Below are positions 51,769-52,068 of a stretch of DNA of 64,000 nt, one piece after another. This DNA comes from Escherichia phage O18-011, in the sequence record NC_070985.1; one strand, written 5' to 3'. The translations under genes and the position numbers were made by a program. Within the stretch, counting starts at the first letter, position 1. Every line of letters begins with the position of its first letter. The notes beneath the pieces were generated by a model. It made no database searches. It had not been told where the DNA came from and was given only the letters and a program-made list of their open reading frames with translations.

Positions 51769-52068
51769 ATGAGTTGGGGTGGTGTAATATCCTTAATCTG
51801 TATCTTCCTTGTCTGTGTGGCCCTTACAGGCTGCGTACAGAGCCGTCCTGATGGATGGTGTGCAGTAGCAGTGGATGGTATTTGTGTATCTCGCTGGCAT
51901 AAAGGTGAGAAGATTCCTTCTGGTGAGATCGATATGCGCTGGAACGGAGCAACCTGCTCTAATGCTAACCCTTCTGTCAATGAAGAGAAGTCTACGCCAG
52001 ACAATGTTGTGATTGATACAGCGTTGTGGTGTGGTGGCTCTACGGTTACAACCGGTAAGGAGTGGTGA
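51769..52068 (+). CDS. Cys-rich lipoprotein
   Basis: Strong SD AGGAGG; signal peptide with lipobox-like LTGC (MSWGGVISLICIFLVCVALTGC); eight further Cys. Confidence 0.5.
   Translation: MSWGGVISLICIFLVCVALTGCVQSRPDGWCAVAVDGICVSRWHKGEKIPSGEIDMRWNGATCSNANPSVNEEKSTPDNVVIDTALWCGGSTVTTGKEW

Follow-up and report, generated by a model that had tools for sequence, protein, structure and literature searches.

The closest described relative of the gene considered here is that for Rtp45, the superinfection-exclusion lipoprotein of the siphophage Rtp. In the complex of Rtp45 with Shigella LptDE-LptM (PDB 9RPS) the lipoprotein is held between LptE and LptM at the periplasmic rim of LptD, in the vicinity of strands 5-8. 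Residues 30-35 make a β-sheet with LptD 318-323, and a disulfide connects Cys30 and Cys38 (PMC12685063). A long hairpin rises in the lumen of LptD and shifts extracellular loop 4 by up to 20 Å, so that the receptor-binding protein (RBP) is prevented from binding; it is the closed state of LptDE that is bound, locking LptD against entry of the RBP (PMC12685063). In Rtp the rtp45 gene is immediately upstream of rtp44, the RBP gene, and in the BASEL siphophages the rtp44/rtp45-type locus tracks dependence on LptD without exception (PMC8594841). Here we analyze a lipoprotein gene at positions 51769-52068 (+ strand) of a 64,000-nucleotide stretch of Escherichia phage O18-011 (NC_070985.1), termed the window throughout. 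The window derives from a Kuravirus, a podophage of the phiEco32/SU10-like Gordonclarkvirinae, and across the lipoprotein region it is 92-97% identical to many deposited genomes. Its homologies suggest that the gene probably encodes a superinfection-exclusion lipoprotein of the Rtp45 type acting on LptD.

The open reading frame (ORF) as read from the sequence starts with ATG, comprises 99 codons and stops with TGA. Its elements are as follows.

51758-51763, + strand: Shine-Dalgarno sequence AGGAGG, read from the sequence, 5 nt 5′ of the ATG
51769-51831, + strand: signal peptide, residues 1-21, assigned from hydropathy and sequence; helix 3-20 in the AlphaFold2 (AF2) model
51823-51834, + strand: lipobox LTGC, residues 19-22, the cysteine invariant in 77 homologues
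51832-51948, + strand: mature N-terminal core, residues 22-60, with the predicted lipid-anchor Cys22, RPDGW and the Cys31-Cys39 pair
51949-52035, + strand: insertion at the hairpin tip, residues 61-89, with Cys63 (51955-51957) and Cys88 (52030-52032) as its bounds
52036-52068, + strand: returning hairpin strand with G-x-KEW, residues 90-99 and the stop codon (AF2 strand 86-98)

The protein matches the Pfam family PF24052 ‘Phage lipoprotein’ over the full profile (positions 1-80 of 80), with an E value of 4.2e-34 and 116.8 bits against a cut-off of 27. Full-length homologues occur in ~90 related phage genomes. On both counts this is no chance ORF, and the real gene with a strong ribosome-binding site that a first, sequence-only reading had proposed is upheld. 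In a phmmer search of the PDB the sole meaningful match among solved structures is 9rps_D, which is Rtp45 itself (E = 1.5e-13); the weaker matches are designed armadillo repeats, no single stretch of which is significant. We are therefore nearly certain that the protein is a member of the Rtp45 family. Existing annotation says little of this. The orthologues Bas90_0100, YF01 WBF05022 and SGF2 QEM42668 are labeled ‘hypothetical’ or ‘putative lipoprotein’, the PHROGs family is 4281, of ‘unknown function’, and a search of NCBIfam returned no match for the lipoprotein.

Two alignments, one of 7 family members and one of 77, reveal the conserved columns. In the larger set C22, C31, C39, G52, D55 and G60 are invariant, and two motifs are nearly so: RPDGW (R26-P27-D28-G29-W30) close to the mature N-terminus, and G-x-KEW at the C-terminus (G90, G96, E98 and W99). 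Within the core 19 of the 39 residues are identical to those of Rtp45. Cys31 and Cys39 are the equivalents of the Cys30 and Cys38 disulfide pair, and the core aligns with the strand of Rtp45 that pairs with LptD 318-323. An AF2 model was calculated from the 77-sequence alignment, with a predicted local distance difference test score (pLDDT) of 81.9. It comprises the signal helix, three short strands (31-35, 38-44 and 47-50) and a long hairpin formed by strands 52-65 and 86-98; the pLDDT is low at residues 66-85, in the tip. Using Foldseek the best match in the PDB is once more 9rps_D, with a probability of 1.00, a template modeling (TM) score of 0.75 normalized to the target and E = 1.4e-3, and all others have E > 2. 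The authors of 9RPS note that AlphaFold3 mispredicts the complexes of these lipoproteins with LptDE (PMC12685063).

The N-terminus is that of a lipoprotein, as the sequence-only reading had recognized. A hydrophobic segment, MSWGGVISLICIFLVCVA, is followed by the lipobox L19-T20-G21-C22; the N-terminal stretch MSWGGVISLICIFLVCVALTGC provides the hydrophobic helix ahead of this canonical L-T-G-C22. The invariance of Cys22 in the homologues agrees with that assignment, and Cys22 is the predicted site of lipidation. The same reading had counted nine cysteines in about 75 mature residues, and here it requires correction. The precursor has seven (at positions 11, 16, 22, 31, 39, 63 and 88), of which two lie in the signal peptide, and the mature protein has five in 78 residues. 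The mature form is thus only modestly cysteine-rich, keeping the lipid-anchor Cys22 and four others that likely form two disulfide pairs. Aspartate at the +2 position retains a lipoprotein in the inner membrane. The residue following Cys22 is valine, and outer-membrane localization is therefore predicted.

The mechanism of the family was solved in 2025, and the novelty of the window protein is its hairpin tip of 29 residues, which is hypervariable and bounded by an extra cysteine pair. In Rtp45-type proteins the tip is 5-10 residues long and lacks cysteine. A longer insert bounded by cysteines is found in all the Kuravirus-type proteins, and in a second group of relatives of 87-94 residues. 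Its length ranges from 13 to 38 residues among the Kuravirus-type sequences, and the mean pairwise identity in this set is 0.46 for the tip, whereas the core reaches 0.78 and the signal peptide 0.89. The strands of the model are in a register that brings Cys63 and Cys88 opposite one another in the hairpin, and so these cysteines likely form a disulfide staple with the loop lying beyond it. As the hairpin tip is the working part of Rtp45 inside the lumen of LptD, this is the difference of most functional interest. In metagenome contigs (L010-L012, up to 100 kb) an 87-residue relative with a cysteine-bounded hairpin tip is encoded at 6001-6264. That gene belongs to a cluster of small ORFs preceded by a non-coding spacer of ~1.9 kb, a layout like that of the early region in Kuravirus. 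For a DUF6453 protein (P0096), as for the 87-residue relative, the longest contig measures 100,570 bp, and the two may thus share a contig.

The window lipoprotein may be compared directly with Rtp45 (UniProt Q333D9; 9RPS chain D) and the superinfection-exclusion lipoprotein of Oekolampad (bas18_0026). All are small lipoproteins with a lipobox cysteine, an RPDGWC...G.C core, the conserved cysteine pair, a long β-hairpin and a C-terminal G-KEW; their phages infect E. coli or Shigella, and each genome encodes a homologue of the DUF6453 RBP. The phages differ, in that Rtp and Oekolampad are small siphophages whereas the window phage is a prolate podophage. The proteins differ in the tip, and in the absence of any basic residue from the window signal peptide. 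For Rtp45 there is a solved complex, while binding to LptD and exclusion by the window lipoprotein are predicted.

The sequence-only reading had offered Llp of phage T5 as a model for an early lipoprotein that blocks the receptor of its own phage. The analogy of logic stands. Llp (PDB 8A60 and 7QJF) is likewise an early lipoprotein of the inner leaflet of the outer membrane, binding its receptor from the periplasmic side and keeping the RBP from attaching (PMC9586334, PMC12685063). A relationship by descent does not stand, as neither phmmer nor Foldseek gave a match to Llp at E ≤ 10 even though its chains (8a60_B and 7qjf_A) are present in the copy of the PDB that was searched. The targets differ too. 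Llp acts on FhuA by long-range allostery, whereas Rtp45 physically displaces loops (PMC12685063), and the predicted target of the window lipoprotein is LptD. The Cor proteins of T1, phi80 and N15 are another set of small phage lipoproteins that block FhuA, encoded near the J/RBP region. However, the family hidden Markov model aligns with T1 Cor at positions 5-33 only, i.e. the signal peptide and lipobox, at 14.6 bits, and the mature part of T1 Cor is unrelated to the window lipoprotein. Homology with Cor was thus rejected.

If the lipoprotein guards the receptor of its own phage, what is the protein that it excludes? A tblastn search of the window with Rtp44 found a candidate ORF (E = 5e-10), which comes directly after the gene of the tail needle.

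21637-22668, - strand: presumed cognate RBP, 343 amino acids, DUF6453; equivalent of SU10 CDS19 (gp19) and Bas90_0015
22670-23638, - strand: tail needle, equivalent of SU10 gp18, with 1 nt between its end and the DUF6453 gene

The DUF6453 protein aligns with Rtp44 over 307 residues at ~22% identity (BLASTP, E = 4e-12), and with 9rpt_C, the Oekolampad RBP in complex with open LptDE, at E = 1.9e-9. It matches Pfam PF20051 with E = 5e-23, where Rtp44 itself gives 1.4e-113. An AF2 model (pLDDT 84.7, predicted TM score 0.86) has 9rpt_C as its sole significant match in the PDB by Foldseek (E = 5.4e-13, TM score 0.82, root-mean-square deviation 3.6 Å), the next match having E = 0.1. On these comparisons the protein encoded at 21637-22668 is a homologue of the LptD-binding RBPs Rtp44 and RBP-Oekolampad. 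The databases annotate gp19 as ‘membrane protein’ or ‘hypothetical’. Among Kuraviruses its identity ranges from 45% to 99%, as expected for a receptor-binding protein.

The adjacent needle carries a Phage_Tail_Tip domain of the lambda J type (Pfam PF09327, E = 1.1e-26), and it matches the C-terminal part of the J-like protein Rtp43 (residues 905-1070; BLASTP, E = 3e-7). For small siphophages the separate RBP is believed to be attached at the end of such a J-like protein (PMC8594841). With the J-like tip, the DUF6453 RBP and the PF24052 lipoprotein all present, Kuravirus therefore appears to hold the full siphophage LptD module. The module is split, with the tip and the RBP in the late block and the lipoprotein in the early block.

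The lipoprotein gene lies within a long run of small genes on the + strand, the counterpart of SU10 CDS 69-125 and YF01 gp82-122. Assigned by homology with phiEco32, this block belongs to the early class transcribed with host sigma70. The sequence-only reading had called the gene early, and it is by its position in this block that it may be so regarded. The gene is tightly packed inside a polycistronic unit; the stop codon of the preceding ORF is at 51753-51755, leaving a gap of 13 nt, and the next ORF begins 1 nt beyond the gene. No sigma-70 promoter of its own was found, promoter-like sites across 47-56 kb numbering 12 compared with 22 in shuffled sequence.

These elements suggest how the lipoprotein might act. 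It would be made early, from the block transcribed by host RNA polymerase, as a precursor that is exported, lipidated at Cys22 and cleaved. The conserved core would dock between LptE and LptM, on the rim that the LptD barrel presents to the periplasm, and the β-hairpin (52-65/86-98) would climb the lumen, holding the extracellular loops closed to a DUF6453 RBP. The tip is ~20 residues longer, with the putative Cys63-Cys88 bridge, and should therefore reach further toward the site of RBP insertion. The excluded partner would most likely be the DUF6453 protein of the phage itself, encoded beside the tail needle. In this way infected cells and debris would no longer trigger or absorb sister virions, and the infected cells would also be resistant to the many LptD-dependent siphophages. 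On the homology with Rtp45 the window lipoprotein probably binds LptD. That an early lipoprotein blocks the receptor of its own phage, as was first suggested, is supported by the homology found in PF24052 and with 9rps_D by both phmmer and Foldseek. It is plausible that this is indeed the phage's own receptor because the same genome encodes a homologue of Rtp44 and RBP-Oekolampad, though for self-exclusion of Kuravirus through gp19 we consider the case to be evenly poised.

How general is this pairing? By tblastn the lipoprotein is found in 382 phage records, of which ~90 contain the full-length Kuravirus type and the rest are small siphophages, including Rtp-like phages, Rogunavirus, Dhillonvirus and Klebsiella Webervirus. 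The DUF6453 protein is found in 295 records from the same phage groups, among them Gordonclarkvirinae, ~90 of which show 62-99% identity and a few ~45%. Both families are thus shared by Gordonclarkvirinae, Rtp-like phages, Rogunavirus, Dhillonvirus and Webervirus, and both genes are present in every Gordonclarkvirinae genome checked. In Bas93 and Suseptimavirus ECBP2, which have the most divergent gp19, the lipoprotein is present at the syntenic site. Near-universality of both genes in the subfamily suggests that they are not sporadic morons. In T1, which depends on FhuA and served as a negative control, there is neither a DUF6453 ORF nor a mature PF24052 domain. In Webervirus the lipoprotein gene lies among replication genes, unlinked to the RBP gene. 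Adjacency of the two belongs to the siphophage locus rather than to the protein family, and Webervirus too may use LptD while its exclusion gene, like that of Kuravirus, is unlinked. In the record of Klebsiella phage vB_KpnS-VAC11 the lipoprotein is encoded at 4995-5222 and the DUF6453 protein at 41-862.

The presence of the lipoprotein and the RBP homologue in one genome leads to a prediction, that LptD is the terminal receptor of Kuravirus. In its full form, extending to the Gordonclarkvirinae, a DUF6453 RBP on the J-like tip of the needle would trigger needle release and formation of the nozzle, the lipoprotein would be the matching lock, and a siphophage LptD module would have moved into a podophage and become split between late and early blocks. 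We put this forward tentatively, judging its likelihood to fall a little short of even. Use of LptD was recently reported for one other podophage, DEV of Pseudomonas. The literature that we searched contained no link of LptD, DUF6453 or PF24052 to Kuravirus.

The surroundings of the lipoprotein gene are mosaic. In annotated relatives a tRNA gene directly 5′ of the lipoprotein gene provides a syntenic marker.

51182-51257, + strand: tRNA-Arg(TCT), identified by ARAGORN

In the window the two are separated by a 159-codon ORF (51276-51755, + strand) that is unique to it; the product has a membrane anchor at its N-terminus and a domain of periplasmic appearance, and the guanine-cytosine (GC) content of the ORF is 34-37%. 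There were no tblastn matches to it in 50,697 phage genomes, and among 1.84 billion representative proteins it gave one entry that is 99% identical together with three weak matches to large repeat proteins. It was considered as a candidate functional partner of the lipoprotein. A gene for an HNH endonuclease (50742-51191, + strand) overlaps the 5′ end of the tRNA by 10 nt as it does in YF01, whereas SGF2 and Bas90 lack it at the corresponding position, a pattern suggestive of a mobile homing endonuclease. At 51750-52050, corresponding to the lipoprotein gene, the GC content is 48%, whereas the early genes on either side have 36-41%, a difference that may be left from horizontal acquisition. 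Elsewhere in the window the gene for the large terminase (10850-12391, - strand; 99% amino acid identity to Bas90_0001) has the last of the middle genes on one side and the distal end of the late operon on the other. It is not beside the portal gene, where its expected site is around 39434-39875. The junction is found in none of 99 related phage records, each of which matches the region at two separate places, and the placement could reflect rearrangement, mis-assembly or an edited sequence.

A number of observations weigh against a Kuravirus lipoprotein that closes LptD to its own phage. The N-region of the signal peptide contains neither lysine nor arginine, an uncommon feature in signals of lipoproteins, although the same N-terminus is conserved in all the Kuravirus-type homologues. 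The resistance that expression of Rtp45 reportedly confers is cited by PMC12685063 from a 2006 paper on Rtp. The lipoprotein gene is ~30 kb from the RBP-like gene, on the opposite strand and in a different temporal module, so that the adjacency of the Rtp genes is lacking. Nor does the type of lipoprotein co-vary with that of gp19 among Kuraviruses. Compared with the window, Bas91 has a gp19 at 97% and a lipoprotein at 74%, and for MN05 the values are 62% and 94%, respectively. Independent assortment would be expected if the lipoprotein and gp19 touch opposite faces of LptD. Mass spectrometry of SU10 virions did not detect CDS19, although its neighbors 16-18 and 20-24 were detected; gp19 could be a low-copy tip protein, or no virion protein at all. 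The structure of the SU10 virion is described with no mention of CDS19, and the needle is resolved to just 15 Å (PMC9509320). Lastly, Kuraviruses are thought to complete their adsorption on lipopolysaccharide (LPS) via the short tail fibers, and are strictly dependent on O-antigen (PMC11990801). The role of LPS as terminal receptor here is one drawn from analogy with T-even phages rather than from demonstration.

Some of these points would also be at home with exclusion of competitors and nothing more. On such an account the lipoprotein binds LptDE but Kuravirus does not use LptD, and a gene derived from a siphophage guards the cell during the latent period against LptD-dependent siphophages, which are abundant (PMC8594841). 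Independent assortment of the lipoprotein and DUF6453 types fits this too, as does the failure to detect gp19 in SU10 virions; the raised GC content hints at a foreign origin, and the gene sits in a mosaic early region next to an ORFan insertion. Yet a homologue of a DUF6453 RBP, kept beside a needle that has a J-type tip domain, would be left unexplained, and both genes are near-universal in the subfamily. We regard exclusion of competitors alone as unlikely. A second possibility is that the scaffold of Rtp45 has been retargeted, its enlarged tip now fitting some other outer-membrane protein or another RBP specificity, such that LptD is not the target. The part that acts in the LptD lumen in Rtp45 has after all been replaced by a variable cysteine-bounded loop of 13-38 residues, and gp19 is distant from Rtp44 and diverse among Kuraviruses. 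Against this, the docking core is ~50% identical to those of the siphophage members and keeps all the residues that are invariant in the family, including the stretch aligned with the LptD-pairing strand. Moreover the hosts are the same species, and the one relative in the PDB that shares the fold of gp19 is an LptD binder. Retargeting thus seems quite improbable.

In a third account the binding of LptDE would serve host takeover. Its main effect would be to keep new LPS and O-antigen from being inserted, or else to make the outer membrane weaker, as a way, for instance, of easing lysis or altering the cell surface, and exclusion would be a side effect. Rtp45 binds closed LptDE and fills part of the lumen (PMC12685063), the O-antigen is the primary receptor of Kuravirus (PMC11990801), and the gene is in the block classed as early. 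But there is no evidence that proteins of the Rtp45 type block LPS transport, the latent period is short relative to turnover of the surface, and the co-occurrence with the DUF6453 RBP family would be unexplained; this we consider very improbable. Finally, a small secreted cysteine-containing lipoprotein that follows an ORF with a membrane anchor superficially resembles an i-spanin/o-spanin pair, but a spanin of the Rz1 type or another lysis lipoprotein has next to no probability given that the upstream 159-codon ORF is found in no other phage genome, that this early-block gene is far from the holin and endolysin at 27526-28264, and that its homology is to Rtp45 and not to spanins.

A role as the o-spanin is effectively ruled out by a separate overlapping Rz/Rz1 pair elsewhere in the window, which has a lipobox of its own.

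8005-8355, + strand: i-spanin, to which the ‘Rz-like spanin’ of Bas90 maps
about 8240-8500, + strand: o-spanin, overlapping the i-spanin in another frame; ORF with lipobox LSAC

The o-spanin is mis-annotated in Bas90 and Bas93, because there only a truncated ORF of 57 residues is annotated. The o-spanins of the Rz1 type resemble the window lipoprotein as small outer-membrane phage lipoproteins with functionally important cysteines, but they differ in family, genome module and timing.

Our analysis shows that a lipoprotein of the Rtp45 family and a homologue of its partner RBP occur together in a podophage genome. The phiEco32/SU10-like phages have frequently been put forward as therapeutic agents against pathogenic E. 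coli, and the literature we searched assumes that their terminal receptor is LPS. If that receptor is instead LptD, resistance must arise in an essential and constrained protein, which would bear on phage steering and the design of cocktails. Kuraviruses and LptD-dependent siphophages would then exclude one another, and the release of the tail needle seen by cryo-electron microscopy would gain a candidate for its molecular trigger. The variable cysteine-bounded tip provides a natural series with which to study the control that a periplasmic lipoprotein exerts over the extracellular face of LptD. What makes the finding valuable is less the lipoprotein itself than a testable prediction of the terminal receptor for this group of phages.

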